Assembly (NCBI GenBank): GCA_038229595.1 | Contig: JBBROH010000001.1 | Span: 50,633-114,632 of the forward strand | DNA length: 64,000 nt | Direction: 5' to 3' | DNA from: Chloroflexia bacterium | Lineage (GTDB): Bacteria; Chloroflexota; Chloroflexia; QHBQ01 | Shown here: in pieces, positions 3,691-25,890 of the stretch | Layout of the letters: every line of letters starts with the position of its first letter | Numbering within the stretch: the first letter of the stretch is position 1 | The notes under the pieces: model-generated | Database searches by the model: none | What the model was told of the DNA's origin: nothing | Seen by the model: only the letters and a program-made list of their open reading frames with translations | Translations under genes and position numbers: made by a program

Positions 3691-4136
3691 CCAACCTCAC
3701 GGAAGCCGTAGTCCAGCAGGGCGGGCAACTGCGCGGTTTGCTGCCAGGTGAGGCGGGCAATATTCGCCTTGCGGACGCGCGGCTGGCCCAGCCCGCCATT
3801 GAGTTCGGGGTGGTAGGCTGCCTCGATCTGCACCGTCAGCAAGCAATCCCGCACTGGTAGCCAGACCCACACCCCAACCGCCCGCACCAGGATGATCTGC
3901 TGGGTGTCGGGGCTGCTGTCCACCCAGCGCAACAGGCGCAGGAGGTTGTGGCCCGGCACGCTCTGCTCCATGGTGTAGCGGGCCAGGTCTAGCTGCCGTC
4001 CTGCGATCAGCCAGTCCAGTACCGGTTGCACCTGCTGCTCAAGCAACCGTTGCGCGGCCTCCTCTGCTTCCTCATCGCCAGGCACCAGGTGAAGCCGCTT
4101 GCTGCCACCCAGTCGGTTTGCATTACGCCAATTCAT
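3621..4136 (-). CDS. hypothetical protein
   Basis: Start placed at the internal ATG (MNWRNANRLGG...) preceded by GGGAG. No recognisable motif. Its 3' end overlaps the MMPL 3' end by 70 nt. Confidence 0.45.
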   Translation of the reverse strand: MNWRNANRLGGSKRLHLVPGDEEAEEAAQRLLEQQVQPVLDWLIAGRQLDLARYTMEQSVPGHNLLRLLRWVDSSPDTQQIILVRAVGVWVWLPVRDCLLTVQIEAAYHPELNGGLGQPRVRKANIARLTWQQTAQLPALLDYGFREVGYWQINGKVDLQSLGFRHLQPHK

Positions 4137-4313
4137 CTCCCGCTCCCCTCGCCAACAACGCGTTTTGCCGCCCCCTGTCGCTTGCTCTCCTACATGGATT
4201 ATAGCAGAAAAGCACAGGCTTATGGGCAAACAGTTCTACAATTAGAAAGTAGATACCCTGCTGCAATAGCCGCGCTGGTGGTCATAGAAGGTATGGTAAG
4301 GTGCTGGTAAGGA

Positions 4314-5474
4314 TCATTCGGGCGTGTGGCCTACTTTGGCTAGCAGCAGGCGGGCTGCCGCGTGGACGGCTGCCGGTTCGAGCGTAGTCAGGCACTCGCG
4401 GTCGGGGCAACCGTCGCGCAGGCCAACCACCCACTCGCGGTAAAGGCAAGGGCTGCAAGCCAGGCTCTGGCGGATCACTGCGTTGCCGCCGCTATACATA
4501 GCCCGCCAGTCTTCTGCCGTGCCAGTCAGTGCGTCGAACTCCACCGCCGCGCCGCTCCCATACGGCCCCCAAGCCCGTTCGTTGCTCGGCCCATAGATGC
4601 CCAGCACTGCTACCCCCGCCGTCACCGCCACGTGCAGCGGCCCACTGTCGCTGCCCACGTAGAGGTCGCAGTGGCGCAGCACCGCCGCCAACTCGCTGAC
4701 GGTTGTCTGCTCTACCAGGTTGAGCAGCCGACCGGCTCCGCTCGCAGCCATGGCAGCGACCAACTGCCCGGCAAACTCGCGCACGTCGGCCCCGCCAACG
4801 AGGATGATCGCCGCGCCCTCTGCTTGCAACCGCTGCGCCAGTTCGATGAAGGAGGCTAGCGGCCAGCGGCGGGCGGGCGCGTATGTCCCCGTGCCGAGGT
4901 GGATTGCCACCCTGGAGCGGTGGTCGGCCAGGGGCGCGAGCAGCAATGCCGCCTGTGCCTCGTCGGCTGCCGCAACCAACAGGCCGCTGGGGCGCGGACG
5001 CGGGTCGGCTCCAACCAGGGCAGCAACCGCCAGCCAGTAGTCAGCCTCGTGCTGCGCGCCGTAGCCGCGATTGCGAACCCGGCGATTGAGGAACCAGCCG
5101 CGCCCGTTGTCCAACCCTGCACGCACCTTCGCCCCTGCTGCGAGGATCAGCAGGGCGAACTTGGCCGCGCCGAACGTTGTGGTCATGTGCTGCATGATCA
5201 GCACCGCATCATAGTGGTTGCGGCGAAGTTGGCGGCTAAACCGCCACTGGGCCAGCCACTTGCCCGGCTGGAGCAGCTCGCGCGGGCGGTCGAAGGCAGC
5301 AATGGCGATCACCTCGTCCACCTGGGGGATGTGGCGGGCAACCTCCACCGAGCGCGGCGGCACCAGCAAATCCAGGCGGGCGGTAGGGTGCGCCTCGCGC
5401 AAGGCAGCCAGAGCGGGGCTGACCAGCAGCAAGTCACCCAGGTCGCCCAGCTTGACGATCAGGATGCGCTGCAA
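4314..5474 (-). CDS. glycosyltransferase family 9 (heptosyltransferase-like)
   Basis: N-terminus RILIVKLGDLGDLLLVSPALAALR and C-terminal VGSDSGPLHVA are GT9 signatures. TTG start abuts the tyrA stop codon. Confidence 0.85.
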   Translation of the reverse strand: MQRILIVKLGDLGDLLLVSPALAALREAHPTARLDLLVPPRSVEVARHIPQVDEVIAIAAFDRPRELLQPGKWLAQWRFSRQLRRNHYDAVLIMQHMTTTFGAAKFALLILAAGAKVRAGLDNGRGWFLNRRVRNRGYGAQHEADYWLAVAALVGADPRPRPSGLLVAAADEAQAALLLAPLADHRSRVAIHLGTGTYAPARRWPLASFIELAQRLQAEGAAIILVGGADVREFAGQLVAAMAASGAGRLLNLVEQTTVSELAAVLRHCDLYVGSDSGPLHVAVTAGVAVLGIYGPSNERAWGPYGSGAAVEFDALTGTAEDWRAMYSGGNAVIRQSLACSPCLYREWVVGLRDGCPDRECLTTLEPAAVHAAARLLLAKVGHTPE

Positions 5475-19269: not shown

Positions 19270-19662
19270 TCAACCAGGCTGGCCGCCCAGTTCGCGCTCG
19301 CGGATCGACTTCATGCGGAGAGCGAGGCCGCGCCGATCAATCGGCATTGGCTCGTCGCCCGGCTCTGGCGCACCCAGGTTCTGGCGCGTCTCCGCCGTCT
19401 CGCCATACTGCTCGGCGATCTCGTAGGCCAGTAGAAAGAGGCGGTCGTATTCTTCGGGGCTGGTGTTCAGGCGGGCGATGTGCAACTCCTTGTACGCGCC
19501 CAGGTTGCCCGGCGGTCGGCTGAAGCTGAGACCGGTGATCTCGCTGATGTTCTGCATCATCTCCTCGGCCATGCCCCCTGCCATCGGCTCAAATGCCACC
19601 TCCAGCGTCATCAGCCTGCCCATTTGCACCTTCGTCACTCGGATCGGTGCGTTCATCGCCAT
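19270..19662 (-). CDS. hypothetical protein
   Basis: 130-aa ORF with coding-like composition. No recognisable motif. Confidence 0.5.
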   Translation of the reverse strand: MAMNAPIRVTKVQMGRLMTLEVAFEPMAGGMAEEMMQNISEITGLSFSRPPGNLGAYKELHIARLNTSPEEYDRLFLLAYEIAEQYGETAETRQNLGAPEPGDEPMPIDRRGLALRMKSIRERELGGQPG

Positions 19663-19753: not shown

Positions 19754-19782
19754 TTGCAAAAGTGGGCATAGTTTGTTATAAT
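19754..19782 (+). promoter_or_regulatory. promoter of tRNA-Ala
   Basis: TTGCAA (19754-19759), 17 nt spacer, TATAAT (19777-19782). The tRNA starts 12 nt downstream. Confidence 0.7.
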
Positions 19783-19793
19783 GGCTCGGCAAC

Positions 19794-19869
19794 GGGGACT
19801 TAGCTCAGTTGGGAGAGCGCAACACTGGCAGTGTTGAGGTCAGGGGTTCGAGCCCCCTAGTCTCCACCA
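19794..19869 (+). tRNA. tRNA-Ala (anticodon GGC)
   Basis: GGGGACTTAGCTCAGTTGGGAGAGCGCAACACTGGCAGTGTTGAGGTCAGGGGTTCGAGCCCCCTAGTCTCCACCA. Has the G3:U70 identity pair. Anticodon loop is CTGGCAG. CCA is encoded. Confidence 0.95.
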
Positions 19870-19875
19870 TCTTTT

Positions 19876-19901
19876 ACGCATCCGCAGGGGTGCGTTTTCT
19901 T
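19876..19901 (+). terminator. intrinsic terminator after tRNA-Ala
   Basis: ACGCA..TGCGT stem followed by TTTTCTT. Confidence 0.6.
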
Positions 19902-19918
19902 CGATAGCAGGCATCGAA

Positions 19919-20195
19919 CAGGAGTAGTAGGCCGTTCCCCACCCAGAGAGTCGGCGGCTGGTGCAAGCTGACAGGGGGGCCGTGAGGTAGGCCGAACTCG
20001 CCTGGGAGCCGCAGCGGTGAGAGCAATCGTAGCCGCAGCCGAAGTTGCGCCCGTTAACGCGCCCTCAAGCGGACGTTTCGCCCGGCAACCGGCCAGGGCT
20101 GATGCGTCAACCAGGGTGGTACCGACGGAGAGCGCATAGCCCTTCGCCCCTGACTCCAGATGTGGAGTTGTGGGTGGAGGGCTGTTTGTTTTGGG
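19919..20195 (+). promoter_or_regulatory. T-box riboswitch leader, leucine specific (CUC specifier), with terminator/antiterminator
   Basis: Stem I: CAGG 19919-22 pairs with CCTG 20001-04, and GGCC 19930-33 with GGCC 19990-93. S-turn AGTAGTA sits opposite GAA-CTC-G (specifier CTC at 19997-19999). AG box AGAGA 19945-49. Distal hairpin with loop GGCTGGTGCAA. F-box CCGTTA 20051-56. T-box GGGTGGTACCG 20114-24 (TGGT can pair with ACCA). A 12-bp terminator stem, 20138-49 with 20172-83, is followed by GTTTGTTTTG. Confidence 0.75.
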
Positions 20196-20271: not shown

Positions 20272-20412
20272 ATGAGCGACGAGGCAAAGGACGAGGCGAC
20301 GGCCATGCGTCCCCAGACGATGGCCCTGGTCTGCCCAGCTTGCCGCTACACGGAGTTGCGGACTTTGAACCCGGAGCGGCTGTATCTCTTAAGTAGCGAG
20401 GAAGCAAGATGA
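20272..20412 (+). CDS. zinc-ribbon array member 0: truncated, single-knuckle paralog
   Basis: AGGAGG lies 7-10 nt upstream. The 46-aa product ends ...LVCPACRYTELRTLNPERL. This aligns with the C-terminal knuckle of the paralogs (VCxxCGYxxLYAxxPxxL) with G replaced by R. No first CxxC. Stop overlaps the next start (ATGA). Confidence 0.45.
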   Translation: MSDEAKDEATAMRPQTMALVCPACRYTELRTLNPERLYLLSSEEAR

Positions 20413-20996
20413 GCAACCAGGATGAACAGGACGAGTACCGCCCTATCGAGGCACCGATGCCGCCGCTGCCACCCGAAGGTAGCAGGCAACAACCAACAGG
20501 CTACGCTGGCCCAGCCTTGCCGCCGTTGCCAGCCCAACCCGCTCGTCCACTCTCGGCTGAGGAAGCAGCGATTGTGGGTCGCTACCAGGCACAAGGAAAG
20601 AAGCTGCTGACGATAGAGGAACTTAGCCGCCAGGCCGCCATTGCTTCCGAGGAAGCCCGCCGGGAGTTGCGGGCAGCCGAGTCGTTCGTGCTGTCAGCCA
20701 CGCCGCCAGCAAGTACACTGCCCCCACCGCTCGCCCCAGTCGTCCCGCTACCCACTCCTGGACCAGCCCGCCGCAGCCAGCGCGACTGTTCGCAGTGTAG
20801 CGGCCCAACCAACCGCGCCAACCTCAACTATGGCAGCCGTACCGTTGGCTACGAAATGGAGTTGACCCCAGTAGACCAAAGCCTCTTTGACTCGCGGCTG
20901 GCGCGGGTGCAGGTTTACGTCTGCGAAGATTGCGGCTACGTTGACCTCTACGCTACCAGCCCAAAGAGCCTGCGGCCCAAGCCGAAGCGGAGGTAA
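20409..20996 (+). CDS. zinc-ribbon array member 1 (long P/A-rich N-terminal extension)
   Basis: N-terminal PMPPLPPE motif, about 135 aa of low-complexity sequence, then CSQC...YVCEDCGYVDLYATSPKSL. Confidence 0.7.
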   Translation: MSNQDEQDEYRPIEAPMPPLPPEGSRQQPTGYAGPALPPLPAQPARPLSAEEAAIVGRYQAQGKKLLTIEELSRQAAIASEEARRELRAAESFVLSATPPASTLPPPLAPVVPLPTPGPARRSQRDCSQCSGPTNRANLNYGSRTVGYEMELTPVDQSLFDSRLARVQVYVCEDCGYVDLYATSPKSLRPKPKRR

Positions 20997-21000
20997 AGTG

Positions 21001-21333
21001 ATGAGCGACAACCCGAAGTACGATCCCGACAACCCGCCGATGCCCGACCTGCCGCCAGAGGACGAGCTTGGTCAGCAGCAGGGTGGCAACTTCTACGAGC
21101 AGATGAACCGAAGGCTGGCAGAACACCGCCCCCGCACTCAACCGGGCGTGCGGCAAGGTGGCTGCTTCGAGTGTGGTGGCCGCATGGTAGAGGGCAAGAT
21201 GAGCAGCTACACTACAGTGCGGGTAGCGGATGGCAACCCCTTCTTCAGTCGTACTTCGGCGGTCAAGGCGTTGGTCTGCACCCGCTGCGGCTTCATCAAG
21301 CTGTACGCGACTGATCCCAGCGTGGTAGAGTGA
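21001..21333 (+). CDS. zinc-ribbon array member 2
   Basis: GGAGG lies 7 nt upstream. MSDNPKYDPDNPPMPDLPPE..., then CFECGG...LVCTRCGFIKLYATDP. Confidence 0.75.
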   Translation: MSDNPKYDPDNPPMPDLPPEDELGQQQGGNFYEQMNRRLAEHRPRTQPGVRQGGCFECGGRMVEGKMSSYTTVRVADGNPFFSRTSAVKALVCTRCGFIKLYATDPSVVE

Positions 21334-21355
21334 GTATCACAAGGAGGCAACCAGG

Positions 21356-21760
21356 ATGAGCAACCGCAACTTCGACCCGAACAACCCCTACTCTGCGCCA
21401 ATGCCGCCGCTGCCAGGCGAAGCGGGCTACAACCAGGCGGGGCCGGACTACAACAACGATGACCTGATCCGTCAGCTAACCCGCAGCAGCACTTCCCCCT
21501 ATGACGTGCAGTCGCAGCCAGCGCAACCCGCCTATGCCGCGCCGCAGCCAGTCCACACGGCAAGTGGCTGTCCAGAGTGCGGTGGCAATATGCTTATCGC
21601 TAACACCCACAGCAACAGTGAGTATCAATTCTACTTCACGCCGCCCGACAAAGGCTTCTTCGACTTCCGCCGCTCCGAGGTGCGGGTGCTGGTCTGCGAG
21701 AACTGTGGCTTTACCAAGTTCTATGCCCTCAGCCCCAGCGAGTTGCGCCCTAAGGAGTAG
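21356..21760 (+). CDS. zinc-ribbon array member 3
   Basis: AAGGAGG upstream. MSNRNFDPNNPYSAPMPPLPGE..., then CPECGG...LVCENCGFTKFYALSP. Confidence 0.75.
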   Translation: MSNRNFDPNNPYSAPMPPLPGEAGYNQAGPDYNNDDLIRQLTRSSTSPYDVQSQPAQPAYAAPQPVHTASGCPECGGNMLIANTHSNSEYQFYFTPPDKGFFDFRRSEVRVLVCENCGFTKFYALSPSELRPKE

Positions 21761-21763
21761 CGG

Positions 21764-22066
21764 ATGAATGATAACCCGAAGTTCGACCCCGACGACGCGG
21801 CCATGCCGCCGCTGCCACTGGAGCAGCCGAGCTTGCTGTCACGTTCGCGCCGCTGCCCTGATTGTAGTGGGGAGATGGTACCTACTCGGCTAGAGGCGGG
21901 AATCGCGGCTGACGGGGTTTACATCGTTCCTAGTGCAGTCGAGCCTTAGGCCAGGCTGGATCGCTACCAGAGTTCCAGCCACTCAACTACCTGCGTAAAC
22001 TGCGGCTACACCAAAGTTTACGCCCGCCGACCTGACCTGATCAAACAGTTCTTTGAAGAAAGGTAA
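21764..22066 (+). pseudogene. zinc-ribbon array member 4, interrupted by an in-frame TAG at 21947-21949
   Basis: MNDNPKFDPDDAAMPPLPLE...CPDCSG...SAVEP[TAG]ARLDRYQSSSHSTTCVNCGYTKVYARRPDLIKQFFEER. Both halves are in the same frame, and the second knuckle lies after the stop. Confidence 0.6.
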
Positions 22067-22071
22067 GTGTG

Positions 22072-22299
22072 ATGAACGAGCAACTGAAGCAAGAACCGAA
22101 GGCGATGGCCTGCCCCAAGTGCGCGGGCAATATGATCGAGCGCGGCTTTATTGACCCTAACAAGGCGGTCTTCAGTCCTGCGCCCGACAAGCTGCAATGG
22201 ACACAGGCACGCACTTCGCCCGCGAAAGCGATGGTTTGCGACCAGTGTGGCTACGCTGAAGTCTACGCCACCCAGCCGGAGAAGCTGCGCGAAAGCTGA
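22072..22299 (+). CDS. zinc-ribbon array member 5 (short form)
   Basis: MNEQLKQEPKAMACPKCAGNMIERGF...MVCDQCGYAEVYATQPEKL. Resembles the minimal DUF2082/Zn-ribbon_13-type proteins as I recall them. Confidence 0.75.
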   Translation: MNEQLKQEPKAMACPKCAGNMIERGFIDPNKAVFSPAPDKLQWTQARTSPAKAMVCDQCGYAEVYATQPEKLRES

Positions 22300-22344
22300 G
22301 CAGGATTGCCGCTGCCAGACCGGGCAGCAGGAAGGATCACCTTG

Positions 22345-23145
22345 ATGAATGCTGACCAGCCGAAACAAGAGGCAAAAGCCACCGCCTGCCCTAAGTGCGG
22401 GGGCGGTATGCTTGAGTGCGGGATCGAGACCAGCAATGCAGTGCAACTGGCTGGCAGCCTGGGGGTGACGCTGGTGCCGCTGGGCAGAGGCATCTTCAAC
22501 AGGCAGCGGTCTGGCATACTTGCGCTGATGTGCGAGCGATGTGGCTACGTTGAGTTGTATGGCGACCCCAGGCAGATCAAGCCGGGTTTAGCGATAGTGA
22601 GGAGCAGAGATGAGAGACAAATACATACCGCAAGATATCGAACCACAGTGGCAGGCGCGTTGGGCCGAACAGCGTATCTACAACGTACCCCAGCCAGCGG
22701 CGGGCGGCCAAGAGGAGCGGAAGTTCTATGTGGCCTCGATGCTGCCCTACCCCAGCGGCGACTTGCACATGGGCCATATGCGGAACTACACTATCGGCGA
22801 TGTAGTGGTCCGCTACCACAGGATGAAGGGGGAGCGGGTGCTGTCGCCGATGGGCTGGGACGCGTTCGGGCTGCCCGCCGAGAACGCTGCGATCAAGGAT
22901 GGCATCCACCCTGCCACCCGCACGCCGAACAACGTGGCCGCGATGAAGCAGCAGTTCGCCAAGATGGGCGCGATGTTCGACTGGGAGCGCGAGGTCAACA
23001 CCTCCAGCCCCGAATACTACCGTTGGACGCAGTGGCTCTTTCTCAAGCTGTATGCGATGGGGCTGGCCTATCGCGGCAAAGGGCTAGTCAACTGGTGTCC
23101 GAAAGACGCGACTGTGCTGGCAAACGAGCAGGTAGTGGAGGGTAA
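22345..23145 (+). CDS. zinc-ribbon array member 6 (short form) with no nearby stop; ORF runs out of frame into leuS
   Basis: [22 protein letters not shown]...[21 protein letters not shown]. Paralog homology ends near 22590. The frame then stays open to 23145 across the leuS start (22610). The functional end is uncertain. Confidence 0.5.
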
Positions 23146-25081
23146 GTGCGAACGCTGCGGCACCGTAGTGGTGCGCCGCAACCTGGAGCAGTGGTTCTTC
23201 AAAACGACAGCCTACGCCCAACGGATGCTCGACGACCTTGACGGTCTAGACGGCTGGCCGGAGCGTGTCCGCACCATGCAGCGCAACTGGATTGGTCGCA
23301 GCGAGGGTGCCGAGGTAGACTTTGCCATCGCTGGCAGTGAGGGCAAGTTCACCGTCTTCACCACCCGGCCCGACACGTTGTGGGGGGCAACCTTCATGGT
23401 GCTGGCCCCCGAACACGCCCTGGTAGAGACGATCACCGCCCCAGAGCGGCAGGCCGAGGTTGCCGCCTACAAGGAGCAGGCCAGCAAGCAGAGCGAGATT
23501 GAGCGGCTGGCGACTGACAAGGAGAAGACGGGGGTCTTTACTGGTGCCTACGCGATCAACCCGGTCAATGGCGCACAGGTGCCAATCTGGATCGCCGACT
23601 ACGTGCTGACCACCTACGGCACGGGCGCGATCATGGCCGTGCCTGCCCACGATGAGCGTGACTTCGAGTTTGCCCGCAAGTTCGGCCTGCCGATCAAGCT
23701 GGTCTACAACACCGAGCCGCCGCAAGATGCTACTACCATGCCCTCTGCTATCCTGCACACTGGCGTGGCGGTGGCGGCTGGCCCCTTCACCGGGCTGCCC
23801 GACGCAGCAGAGACAGTCAGCAAGGTGATCGCCTGGCTGGAAGCGCAGGGGTTCGGCAGGGGTAAGGTTAACTTCCGCCTGCGCGACTGGCTGATCAGCC
23901 GCCAACGCTACTGGGGTGCGCCAATCCCCATCGTCTACTGCGACCACTGTGGGATGCAGCCGCTGCCGCTCAACCAACTGCCGGTCGTGCTACCCCTGGA
24001 TGTGGCGTTCAAGCCGGGCGGCGAGTCGCCCCTCGCCCGCGTCGAGTCGTTCGTCAACACCACCTGCCCGGCCTGCGACGGCCCCGCCCGCCGCGAGACC
24101 GATACGATGGACACCTTCGTGGATAGCTCCTGGTACTTCATGCGCTACTGCGACCCGCAGAACATTGAACTGCCCTTTGACAAGGCGATGGTAGATTACT
24201 GGATGCCGCTGGATCAGTACATTGGTGGGGTCGAACACGCGATCCTGCACCTGATGTATGCCCGCTTCTTCACCAAAGCCCTCTACGACGCAGGTATGAT
24301 CAGCATTAGCGAGCCGTTCACTAAGCTCTTTACCCAGGGCATGGTCTACCTCAACGGGGCGAAGATGAGCAAGAGCAAGGGTAATGTGGTGCCGGTAGAT
24401 GACTTTGTGGCGCGCTTGGGGGCAGACGCGGGGCGCATCTACGTGCTGTTCATGGCCCCACCGACCGACGATAGTGAGTGGAGCGACGCGGGCGCAATCG
24501 GGGCTTCACGCTTCCTGGGTCGTGTCTGGCACCTGCTCGACGAGGGGATCGACCTGCACGCCGCCCGCCCAGCCGCTGCCGACCTGGACAAGGCCGCCCG
24601 CGAGATCGTCGGCCATGCCAACCGCCTGGTAGAACGAGTAGGCAGCGATATCGAACGCTTCCACCACAACACCATCATCAGCGCGTACATGGATTTTGTC
24701 AACAAACTGAGCGATTACCGCGAGCAGCAGGGGCAGACCGCCGCCTTCAACGAGGCCGCTCGCCTGTTCCTGCTGGTTCTCGCCCCCGCCGCCCCACATA
24801 TCGCTGAGGAAATCTGGCAGCGGTTGGGTGGCAAGGGCAGCATCCACCTGCAAGCCTGGCCCAGCGTCGACTCCGCCTTCCTGCAAGCCGAGGAGATGAC
24901 CATTGTGGTGCAGGTCAATGGCAAGCTACGCGACCGCCTGACCCTGCCTGCGGGCATGGACGAGGCAGCAGTAAAGGAAGCAGCCCTGGCCGCCGACAAA
25001 GTGGCCGCCACCCTCAACGGCAGGCAGCCCACCAGCGTCCTCTACGTCCCTGGTAGGCTGGTCAATGTGGTGGTCAAGTAG
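22610..25081 (+). CDS. leuS: leucine--tRNA ligase
   Basis: [15 protein letters not shown]-terminus. HMGH (HIGH-type) motif. CP1 zinc knuckles. KMSKS motif ([10 protein letters not shown]). 823 aa. GAGGAG RBS. Confidence 0.95.
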
Positions 25082-25095
25082 AGGAGGTGGGGAGG

Positions 25096-25890
25096 ATGGA
25101 GCTAGAGGGGCTGATCGTGCAGGTGCAGGAGAGTGGCAAGTACCGGGCGGTCAGCCCTGAGCTTGTGCGCCAGCTTGCCGCGCAGGAGGCGGCGAAAGGG
25201 CGCAGCGTGAAGGAGACGGTGAAGGCGATCCGCAACCGCCTGCATCAGGTGGGCGGTGCCTACCTCGAAGCGGGTACTGACTACGACCGCTGGCTGGCGA
25301 GCTTGCAGGCAGCAGAGGGGCGGGCCAGCTTGCTGGCAGCCTGCCGGGAGGTGCTGCGCCACCACGCCTCGACCCGCGAACGCCTGCCGATCCTCGACCA
25401 GTTCTACGCCACCGTGCTGGCTGGCCTACCGCCGCTACGCTCGGTGCTAGACGTGGCTTGCGGCCTCAACCCGCTGACGATCCCCTGGTTGCCGCTGGCT
25501 GCCGACGCACTCTACTACGCCTGCGACATCTACGCCGACATGGTGGCCTTCCTCAACGCTAGCTTCCCGCTGCTCGGCGTGCAGGGAGCCGCCAGCCAGT
25601 GCGACCTGACCCAGACGATCCCCACTACCGAAGCGGACATTGCCTTCATCCTCAAGACGATCCCCTGCCTTGAGCAGGTGGACAAGGCGGCGGGCCGCAG
25701 GCTGCTGGATGGCCTGCGCGCCCGCTGGCTGCTCGTCTCCTTCCCCACCCGCAGCCTGGGCGGGAGGAGCAAGGGCATGGGCGCGAGCTACGAGGCACAC
25801 TTCAACGCCCTGGTTGCTGGGCGCGGCTGGCAGGTCGCTCGCTTTGAGGTCCCCGGCGAACTCGCCTTCCTGGTAGACAAGCAGCCCTGA
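25096..25890 (+). CDS. 16S rRNA (guanine1405-N7) methyltransferase family protein (Rmt/ArmA/FmrO-like)
   Basis: Aligns by eye with the RmtB sequence as I recall it: GKYRAVSPELVR, HASTRERLP, LDVACGLNPL, ILKTIPCLE, VSFPTRSLGGRSKGM. Confidence 0.85.
   Translation: MELEGLIVQVQESGKYRAVSPELVRQLAAQEAAKGRSVKETVKAIRNRLHQVGGAYLEAGTDYDRWLASLQAAEGRASLLAACREVLRHHASTRERLPILDQFYATVLAGLPPLRSVLDVACGLNPLTIPWLPLAADALYYACDIYADMVAFLNASFPLLGVQGAASQCDLTQTIPTTEADIAFILKTIPCLEQVDKAAGRRLLDGLRARWLLVSFPTRSLGGRSKGMGASYEAHFNALVAGRGWQVARFEVPGELAFLVDKQP

Follow-up and report, generated by a model that had tools for sequence, protein, structure and literature searches.

What is a run of small paralogous zinc-ribbon genes doing directly in front of a leucyl-tRNA synthetase gene? 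The question is posed by a 64,000-nucleotide stretch from a Chloroflexia bacterium (GenBank assembly GCA_038229595.1, contig JBBROH010000001.1, positions 50,633 to 114,632 of the forward strand; henceforth the window, numbered from its first letter), in which seven consecutive + strand open reading frames (ORFs), here named M1 to M7, occupy positions 20272-22600. An earlier model-made reading of the letters alone (the sequence-only reading) had singled out these ORFs as a tandem array of zinc-ribbon genes, and both the ORF listing and direct reading of the DNA bear out seven same-strand ORFs at these positions. We find that they represent an uncharacterised zinc-ribbon family that is tandemly expanded inside a leucine T-box/leuS operon. 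The T-box context had escaped the sequence-only reading, which named the leucyl-tRNA synthetase (LeuRS) only as a possible partner.

The array lies between a leucine-specific T-box and leuS

Upstream of the array we detected a T-box leader through its match to the Rfam family RF00230, which extends over the full model (Table 1). Its specifier loop reads GAA-CUC-G, i.e. a codon for leucine with the customary purine after it, and its T-box sequence, AACCAGGGUGGUACCG, provides a UGGU bulge that fits an A73 discriminator. The intrinsic terminator that follows ends in a U-run after the hairpin (UUUGUUUU), and its 5' arm is at the same time the 3' strand of the antiterminator (shared CCCUUCGCCCC), so that the two structures are mutually exclusive. 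Matches to RF00230 of 50-80.5 bits were also recovered upstream of leuS in five relatives. Across the six leaders the specifier segment GAACUC[G/A]CC and the T-box sequence are invariant, and the terminator arms covary through compensatory changes, as in CCCUUCGCCC/GGGUGGAGGG of the window and CCUUUCGUCC/GGACGGAAGG of one relative (L108). Judged by these features the T-box is real and leucine-specific, and there is good support for viewing it as a transcription-attenuation device that would sense uncharged tRNA-Leu and gate transcription into the array.

M1 starts 77 nucleotides past the terminator, and at the other end of the array leuS starts 19 nucleotides past the ancestral stop of M7, where it is provided with a Shine-Dalgarno sequence (GAGGAG). 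A simple scan of the + strand of the array revealed nothing resembling a terminator or a promoter. Since a leucine T-box with its terminator lies directly upstream and leuS directly downstream, the array is situated within the leader/operon of leuS, and we infer that the same transcript would continue from the array into the synthetase gene.

In a consensus scan, the only + strand promoter-like site before leuS, whose function is inferred, precedes a tRNA-Ala gene and is kept in the close relative (L001). As this tRNA gene sits between the sole promoter-like site and the T-box, with a gap of merely 35 nucleotides to the latter, the T-box may perhaps be transcribed as part of a tRNA-Ala/leader co-transcript. 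Within the gap, at 19876-19895, there is a weak hairpin with a U-tract behind it. In two relatives comparable tRNA genes closely precede the leuS T-box, one gene in L105 and two in L107, identified as tRNA-Ala by reading the anticodon loop by eye.

Table 1. Positions in the window of the features from the promoter-like site to leuS
Feature	Positions	Strand	Description
Promoter-like site	19754-19782	+	TTGCAA, 17-nucleotide spacer, TATAAT, TG extension; upstream of tRNA-Ala
tRNA-Ala(GGC)	19794-19869	+	ARAGORN; Rfam 64.8 bits; 35 nucleotides before T-box
T-box leader	19905-20154	+	Rfam RF00230, 70.1 bits, E 3.6e-15, full model 1-219; below gathering threshold of 93
Intrinsic terminator	20135-20195	+	-49.6 kcal/mol, z -3.8
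M1	20272-20412	+	46 amino acids; decayed remnant, C-terminal knuckle only
M2	20409-20996	+	195 amino acids, intact; PMPPLPPE N-terminal motif, Pro-rich stretch, helical-looking region (by eye), zinc ribbon, basic tail
M3	21001-21333	+	110 amino acids, intact; N-terminal DPDNPPMPDLPPE motif and zinc ribbon
M4	21356-21760	+	134 amino acids, intact; N-terminal motif, Q/P/A-rich spacer, zinc ribbon
M5	21764-22066	+	100 codons; in-frame TAG at 21947-21949
M6	22072-22299	+	75 amino acids, intact; minimal type, starts MNEQLKQEPKAMACPKCAG
M7	22345-22590	+	Minimal type, domain intact; 81 amino acids to ancestral stop
leuS (LeuRS, 823 amino acids)	22610-25081	+	Pfam tRNA-synt_1 and Anticodon_1 on orthologs; T-box target in outgroups

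Anatomy of the array members

An alignment of M2 to M7 reveals the common pattern CxxC[GS]G, 30-45 residues, CxxCG[YF]..[YF][AG]..P, in which all four cysteines are invariant. The two-knuckle architecture that the sequence-only reading had attributed to all seven members thus holds for these six, in the case of M5 only by reading through its stop codon, but not for M1, which is devoid of the first knuckle and has a degenerate second one (VCPACRY). The same reading had divided the array into two subtypes, whose membership needs to be redrawn: the N-terminal motif D-P-x-N-P...PMPxLPxE, previously given to members 1-4, belongs to M2-M5, where its P-M-P-x-L-P-x-E portion is invariant, and the minimal form, previously given to members 5-6, is that of M6 and M7, with the motif QPK[QD]E and N-termini of the form M-N-x-x-[LQ]-[KP]-K-Q-E. 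Intergenic gaps of -4 to 45 nucleotides and repeated gtgATGA start contexts were found as described before, and the ATG of each member is preceded, at a distance of 6-10 nucleotides, by a Shine-Dalgarno sequence. The isoelectric points (pI) of the proteins range from 5.1 to 8.3 and are hence not strongly basic.

We then searched with a profile (A4) built almost entirely from proteins that are not encoded in the window. It matched M2 (E 4e-16), M3 (3e-17), M4 (4e-22), M6 (3e-25) and, within the same range of 4e-16 to 3e-25, M7, so that the homology within the array lies far beyond chance; elsewhere in the 64 kb window it matched nothing. M1 was matched at E 4e-4 by the C-terminal half of the profile only, and both halves of M5 were recognized.

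Four of the members (M2, M3, M4 and M6) are intact, M6 being the best conserved of all. The other three agree with the earlier suggestion of decaying copies. M1 is a remnant that has decayed in both close genomes, its start codon ATG having become ATA in the close relative. The TAG of M5 corresponds to TAC (Tyr) in the intact 100-amino-acid ortholog of the relative (P0002), and the gene may be either a recent pseudogene or intact with the TAG as a sequencing error. M7 has lost its stop: the ancestral position (22588-22590) reads TTA in the window, against TGA in the relative, and as a consequence the ORF runs on, out of frame, into leuS up to position 23145.

M2 and its orthologs additionally share, flanked by the Pro-rich stretches, a conserved segment (residues ~48-92, LSAEEAAIVGRYQAQGKKLLTIEELSRQAAIASEEARRELRAAE), which appears helical by eye. 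Its likeness to a helix-turn-helix is likewise by eye, and it found no match in Pfam or among PDB sequences.

The ORFs are protein-coding genes under selection

The same locus was found on contigs of the metagenome-assembled genome (MAG) GCA_043754535.1 and of several metagenomes at about 92% DNA identity, and this close relative, R, has the same gene order as the window. We compared the two by the Nei-Gojobori method and obtained ratios of nonsynonymous to synonymous substitution rates (dN/dS) of 0.24 for M2, 0.34 for M3, 0.17 for M4, 0.28 for M5 and 0.17 for M6, with many synonymous changes. By the same method leuS gave 0.08, the glycosyltransferase gene upstream 0.22 and the FmrO-like gene downstream 0.16. 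As ratios of 0.17-0.34 were obtained against a relative that is 92% identical in DNA, the array ORFs are real genes; by this measure M2-M6 are under purifying selection. The sequence-only reading had made its case contingent on conservation of the ORFs in related genomes, and this conservation is indeed observed.

These data also bear on the proposal that the ORFs do not code for proteins at all, the region being instead either an extended, structured leader RNA or what is left of a mobile or defence island. In its favour, three of the ORFs (M1, M5 and M7) carry defects here and a tRNA gene lies just upstream, tRNA genes being common integration sites. Such an origin is extremely improbable, given that the dN/dS values lie well below 1 with synonymous changes in abundance, that the Cys codons are invariant with a Shine-Dalgarno sequence at every ORF, that hundreds of stand-alone protein homologs exist and that the order of tRNA gene and T-box recurs in outgroups without the array. 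A defence-island or phage origin in particular was considered and rejected: no matches were obtained in PADLOC, PHROGs gave matches to the knuckles only (E ~0.004), nothing significant emerged from BFVD, and the G+C content is like that of the flanks.

Two neighbouring genes may be mentioned here. A gene at 25087-25890 starts 5 nucleotides after the stop of leuS and may share its operon; it was assigned as FmrO-like from its ortholog. The corresponding family, PF07091, comprises 16S rRNA methyltransferases of the aminoglycoside-resistance type. On the other side, a 130-amino-acid ORF on the - strand (19270-19662) is divergently oriented from the tRNA/T-box unit and is conserved very strongly, its dN/dS against the relative being 0.05; no match to it was found in Pfam, NCBIfam or PADLOC.

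Affinities of the zinc ribbon

The sequence-only reading had guessed a fold of the DUF2082/Zn-ribbon_13 type, and this guess proved sound. In Pfam searches with hmmscan the nearest family is Zn_ribbon_13 (PF09855, DUF2082), with scores of 21.4 bits for M6, 20.9 for M7, 18.2 for M4 and 14.1 for M2 against a gathering cut-off of 23, which no array member attained; M3 and M5 yielded no match to it. The overlapping family DUF6487 (PF20097) was likewise matched below its threshold. We then approached the relationship from the opposite direction: a profile built from the array alone (A3) retrieved 630 representative clusters at E <= 1e-3 from 1.8 billion sequences, mostly proteins of 60-100 amino acids. 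Among them was P0101, an annotated member of PF09855, at E 2.9e-7; precomputed annotations with this family are attached to P0101, P0158 and P0168. As PF09855 was matched by 68 of the 101 aligned top single-domain retrievals (best E 1.8e-8), the array constitutes a divergent branch of that uncharacterised superfamily.

An AlphaFold2 model of M6 assumes a four-stranded C4 ribbon with paired knuckles (mean predicted local distance difference test score, pLDDT, 82). In the model of full-length M3 the ribbon is folded and the N-terminal 50 residues are of low confidence; the PMPxLPxE peptide is thus conserved yet predicted to be disordered. According to these models the domain is a single small zinc ribbon with two CxxC knuckles, for which zinc binding is predicted. 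Some of the retrieved proteins contain two or three fused ribbons (P0011, P0012, P0015 and P0021). Another branch of the superfamily (P0015, P0021, P0030, P0040, P0053, P0057 and P0065) carries the N-terminal peptide M-D-H-P-T-R-R-L-D-P, sometimes repeated two to three times, and includes several proteins in which two or three ribbons are fused. As this second branch has a different N-terminal peptide, variable N-terminal motifs seem to be general in the family.

Searches for a better-understood relative returned generic zinc ribbons. Foldseek found nothing in the PDB at E <= 0.001, its hits being general ribbons such as L44e, Rpa12, Rpp21 and NrdR, and the BFVD fold search likewise found nothing at E <= 0.001. 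The best match in a profile search of PDB sequences was the ribosomal protein S27ae/eS31, which covered both knuckles weakly at E 0.003, and M2 alone matched nothing there. NCBIfam gave weak, knuckle-level matches only (HVO_2142 and HVO_A0556, E 0.005-0.05). No characterised family was matched in Pfam, NCBIfam, PADLOC, PHROGs, PDB or BFVD, and our literature search found no paper on DUF2082 and none on the MAG accession. The statement of the sequence-only reading that no function has been described for these proteins agrees with this outcome of the library searches.

The association with leuS raises the alternative that the proteins are trans-acting accessory modules of LeuRS or tRNA-Leu, which tune aminoacylation or editing in the manner of the built-in zinc modules of class Ia synthetases. 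Enzymes of this class carry zinc knuckles, which are visible in our LeuRS alignment. The linkage of the genes with leuS, the description 'nucleic-acid-binding' in the Pfam family name and the weak resemblance of both knuckles to S27ae/eS31 (E 0.003) are in accord with such a role. We nevertheless hold it to be quite unlikely: the LeuRS of the ribbon-containing clade keeps all its Cys motifs with no matching deletion, small RNA-binding proteins do not usually have pI values in the neutral to acidic range seen here, searches by sequence and by fold gave no significant match to any synthetase domain, and damage is most frequent in the copies adjacent to leuS. A more specific version, namely a 'split enzyme' in which the ribbons complement in trans a LeuRS lacking its zinc module, is ruled out by the alignment, which shows every Cys motif kept and no clade-specific deletion.

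Conservation of the arrangement among relatives

Beyond the window's own 90% cluster, the closest LeuRS sequences are 67% and 65% identical, followed by those of 'Chloroflexia bacterium' MAGs at about 58-59%. At 65% (L105) we found a tRNA gene, a T-box with the CUC specifier and its terminator, a single zinc-ribbon gene of the M6 type (E 1e-25) and leuS. The contig at 67% (L106) starts inside an M6-type gene located 175 nucleotides before leuS. Two more distant loci, L110 (LeuRS 58%) and L107 (LeuRS P0182), have the CUC T-box directly before leuS, and in L108 (LeuRS 59%) a hydrolase-like gene lies between the two. The linkage of zinc ribbon and leuS is therefore shown, at the level of gene order, to be conserved in two further lineages (L105 and L106), in one of which the T-box is also seen. 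The simplest history compatible with these arrangements would be one in which the T-box-leuS unit is ancestral, a single M6-type gene was inserted into it, and this gene later expanded and diversified in the lineage of the window.

As a control we inspected 80 other leuS loci from diverse phyla, drawn from the matches listed in a scan of a genome collection with LeuRS; their LeuRS proteins are at most 57% identical, true relatives being absent from the set. Among these listed matches, none of the 80 loci had a member of the zinc-ribbon family within 10 kb of leuS, and wherever a T-box motif exists nearby in the listed loci it lies 79-285 nucleotides before leuS, versus 2495 nucleotides in the window. 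Among distant members of the family, P0101, P0063 and P0169 are singletons in unrelated neighbourhoods, no conserved neighbourhood was found around such distant members, and a metagenome scan with the family alignment gave only seven distant singletons.

Several peculiarities of these loci deserve a brief record. The gene captured in L108 (region 3856-5001) codes for a 219-amino-acid hydrolase-like protein (Abhydrolase_11, weak) and sits between the leucine T-box terminator and leuS as a second, unrelated acquisition. The zinc-ribbon gene of L105 (3837-4196) has, relative to L106, a 1-nucleotide insertion seven codons before the expected stop, through which the ORF gains about 50 codons and overlaps the start of leuS by 32 nucleotides. 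The leuS-adjacent copy is altered at its end in L105 and in the window (stop lost), and frameshifted in L001, for which chance, errors of assembly or selection on coupling could be responsible. The 175-nucleotide spacer of L106 (153-328) contains a long inverted repeat with arms of ~22 nucleotides (GGCTAGCGGATTCGTAAAAGCG and CGCTTTCACGAATCCGCTAGCC) that are ~100 nucleotides apart; the repeat could be a small mobile element or a regulatory hairpin. Finally, the LeuRS of L107 (P0182, 6214-9381) is called as a protein of 1055 amino acids, with an internal segment of ~230 amino acids (ending DFARKFGL) in tandem duplication, which is probably an assembly artefact and possibly real.

Age and turnover of the paralogs

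The paralogs of the window are only 26-44% identical to each other. A third organism, represented by short contigs (L009-L011), has at least eight members, and reciprocal best matches could be established with it for M2 and S_193 (P0008; 55%), M3 and S_111 (48%), M6 and S_75 (64%), and R_102 and S_99 (47%). As these orthologs share 47-64% identity versus 26-44% for the paralogs, the expansion is old, and the subtypes predate the split of the lineages and were maintained thereafter. A homolog of M1 is also present in L010/L011 and is seemingly intact, its N-terminus lying off the contig end.

Against this background of long-term maintenance, individual copies are lost. Relative R has an eighth member (102 amino acids) between M2 and M3, which is deleted in the window and was excised exactly between 18-nucleotide direct repeats located at conserved gene starts. 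M7 is frameshifted in L001-L008, with an intact 81-amino-acid ortholog (P0014) in another strain. L105 has a single zinc-ribbon copy, L106 at least one, the close relative eight loci and the third organism at least eight. Copies are, on the evidence of these comparisons, being lost both by point mutation and by unequal recombination, and the loss is ongoing. The sequence-only reading had spoken of a seven-fold expansion with rapid turnover. Seven ORFs are indeed present here, but their number varies from one to at least eight among relatives; similarly, loss of individual copies is evident, but the expansion itself is old and its subtypes persist as one-to-one orthologs at 47-64% identity.

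This history is relevant to the possibility that the array is a passenger, i.e. that chance placed a small zinc-ribbon gene in the leuS leader, where unequal crossing-over multiplied it, its position being meaningless and its products either unrelated to leucine and LeuRS or nearly functionless. The distant homologs in unrelated contexts, the free loss of copies (the 102-amino-acid unit between its 18-nucleotide repeats, M5, M7 and M1) and the capture of a hydrolase-like gene in the same slot of L108, which implies that the slot tolerates insertions, are all as this scenario would have them. It is less easily reconciled with an order of T-box, zinc ribbon and leuS that is kept down to 65% LeuRS identity, with purifying selection on M2-M6, and with the retention of paralog subtypes as one-to-one orthologs across a deep split. 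Moreover, genes behind a T-box terminator are T-box regulated whatever their job. Hence we regard passenger status as unlikely, while giving it real weight.

Proposed role of the array

Taking these lines of evidence together, we consider it rather probable that the array is a lineage-specific tandem expansion, in a Chloroflexota-like clade, of one small Zn_ribbon_13/DUF2082-like gene lodged between a leucine T-box and leuS, and that its products are made together with LeuRS at leucine limitation and are likely to be small binding modules. In this proposal uncharged tRNA-Leu(GAG) would base-pair at two places in the leader, the CUC specifier and the UGGU bulge, the pairing would stabilise the antiterminator, and RNA polymerase would pass the terminator. 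The read-through transcript would then comprise M1-M7 followed by leuS, each gene being translated from its own Shine-Dalgarno sequence at a spacing close enough for translational coupling. Because T-box read-through would carry M1-M7 along with leuS, the zinc-ribbon proteins would be made alongside LeuRS when charging is limiting, and it is probable, from the layout of the leader, that they are produced when charged leucine tRNA runs short.

As to what the proteins do, they could, each as a C4 ribbon with a disordered N-terminal peptide, act on some partner, protein or RNA, when leucine is limiting; there are faint indications that they are small binding modules, one being that the N-terminal peptide is conserved although disorder is predicted for it. 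The existence of two- and three-ribbon fusions elsewhere suggests that several ribbons act together, and the near-neutral pI mildly argues for protein rather than RNA targets.

A bolder version of this proposal is that the M6-type ribbon and its paralogs form a new class of amino-acid-starvation effectors gated by uncharged tRNA-Leu, with each paralog addressing its own target and the PMPPLPPE peptide docking onto a common partner, candidates being LeuRS, the tRNA-Leu isoacceptors, the ribosome and RNA polymerase. The array would then be a multi-member leucine counterpart of anti-TRAP. In this full form we deem the idea speculative and unlikely to be right.

Several observations weigh against the proposed role. 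The leader scores below the gathering threshold of RF00230 in all six genomes. Co-transcription is deduced from spacing and a crude scan for terminators and promoters, and leuS could possess an internal promoter of its own, e.g. inside M7. The linkage to leuS comes from three lineages only (the window with R, L105 and L106), and the contigs of the third organism, which has a large array, are too short to reach either T-box or leuS. The distant singletons in unrelated contexts imply that linkage to leuS is not a general property of the wider family. Single copies are dispensable, as seen from the decay of M1, the nonsense codon in M5, the absence of the 102-amino-acid member from the window and the frameshift of M7 in the relative. 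No analysis pointed to a binding partner. We also considered a composition signature of starvation: the array proteins contain 6.9% leucine versus 10.4%, and CTC accounts for 6 of their 48 leucine codons versus a background of 25%. This leucine-poor composition and CUC avoidance is suggestive, but the depletion is modest, which counts against the proposal, and the signal is too weak to be used.

Implications and comparison with known systems

With a gap of 2.4 kb between sensor and synthetase gene that accommodates six to eight extra cistrons, this is an unusual T-box operon. Micro-proteins of the Zn_ribbon_13/DUF2082-like type are widespread, as attested by the 630 representative clusters, and uncharacterised, and the present locus offers a first functional lead for them: in no fewer than two deep lineages (that of the window and R, and that of L105) a branch of the family follows a leucine T-box and precedes leuS. 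The link to the T-box therefore renders the function of this zinc-ribbon branch directly testable. The locus is also a clean natural case of birth-and-death evolution of micro-proteins through unequal recombination at conserved 5' ends.

The regulatory part of the locus corresponds to the canonical T-box-leuS leader (RF00230) of Bacillota and Chloroflexia in its architecture, its CUC specifier and its terminator/antiterminator switch, and differs from it in that the synthetase gene follows ~2.5 kb past the T-box motif rather than after 79-285 nucleotides. The encoded proteins resemble Zn_ribbon_13/DUF2082 in their size of ~60-80 amino acids and in a single C4 ribbon with the knuckles CPxCG and CxxCGY.E.Y. 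Unlike that family they score below the gathering threshold (<= 21.4 versus 23), and M2-M5 add the PMPPLPPE peptide and long low-complexity spacers. Their genes furthermore form a tandem array within a T-box/leuS operon, ordinary members of the family occurring singly and in a variety of contexts. The C(P)XCG micro-proteins of haloarchaea (e.g. Brz, HVO_2753 and HVO_0758) are comparable in being very small, with two knuckles, often regulatory, numerous in each genome and mostly uncharacterised; they are archaeal, the array matched them in NCBIfam only through the weak knuckle-level hits given above, and they are not known to be arrayed or to have a T-box link.

In terms of regulatory logic the closest analogue is anti-TRAP (rtpA/yczA) of Bacillus subtilis, a small zinc protein encoded directly behind a T-box and made when a specific tRNA is uncharged. 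Anti-TRAP acts by binding another protein. It differs from the array in being Trp-specific, a single gene and not followed by a synthetase gene, and the comparison of the array with its family (PF15777) reached only E 0.07 and 13.6 bits versus a cut-off of 32, over an 11-residue knuckle, so that the array does not belong to this family. Genes for anti-TRAP and for 'tRNA-ligase related hypothetical' proteins have been listed together behind T-boxes (Wels et al. 2008, PMC2494555) and serve as precedents for genes other than those of synthetases in this position. The latter, from streptococci (Table 2 of that paper), are like the array in being uncharacterised and situated between a T-box and a synthetase gene; they belong to other organisms, with no tandem expansion or zinc ribbon reported for them, and are likened to the array by description only.

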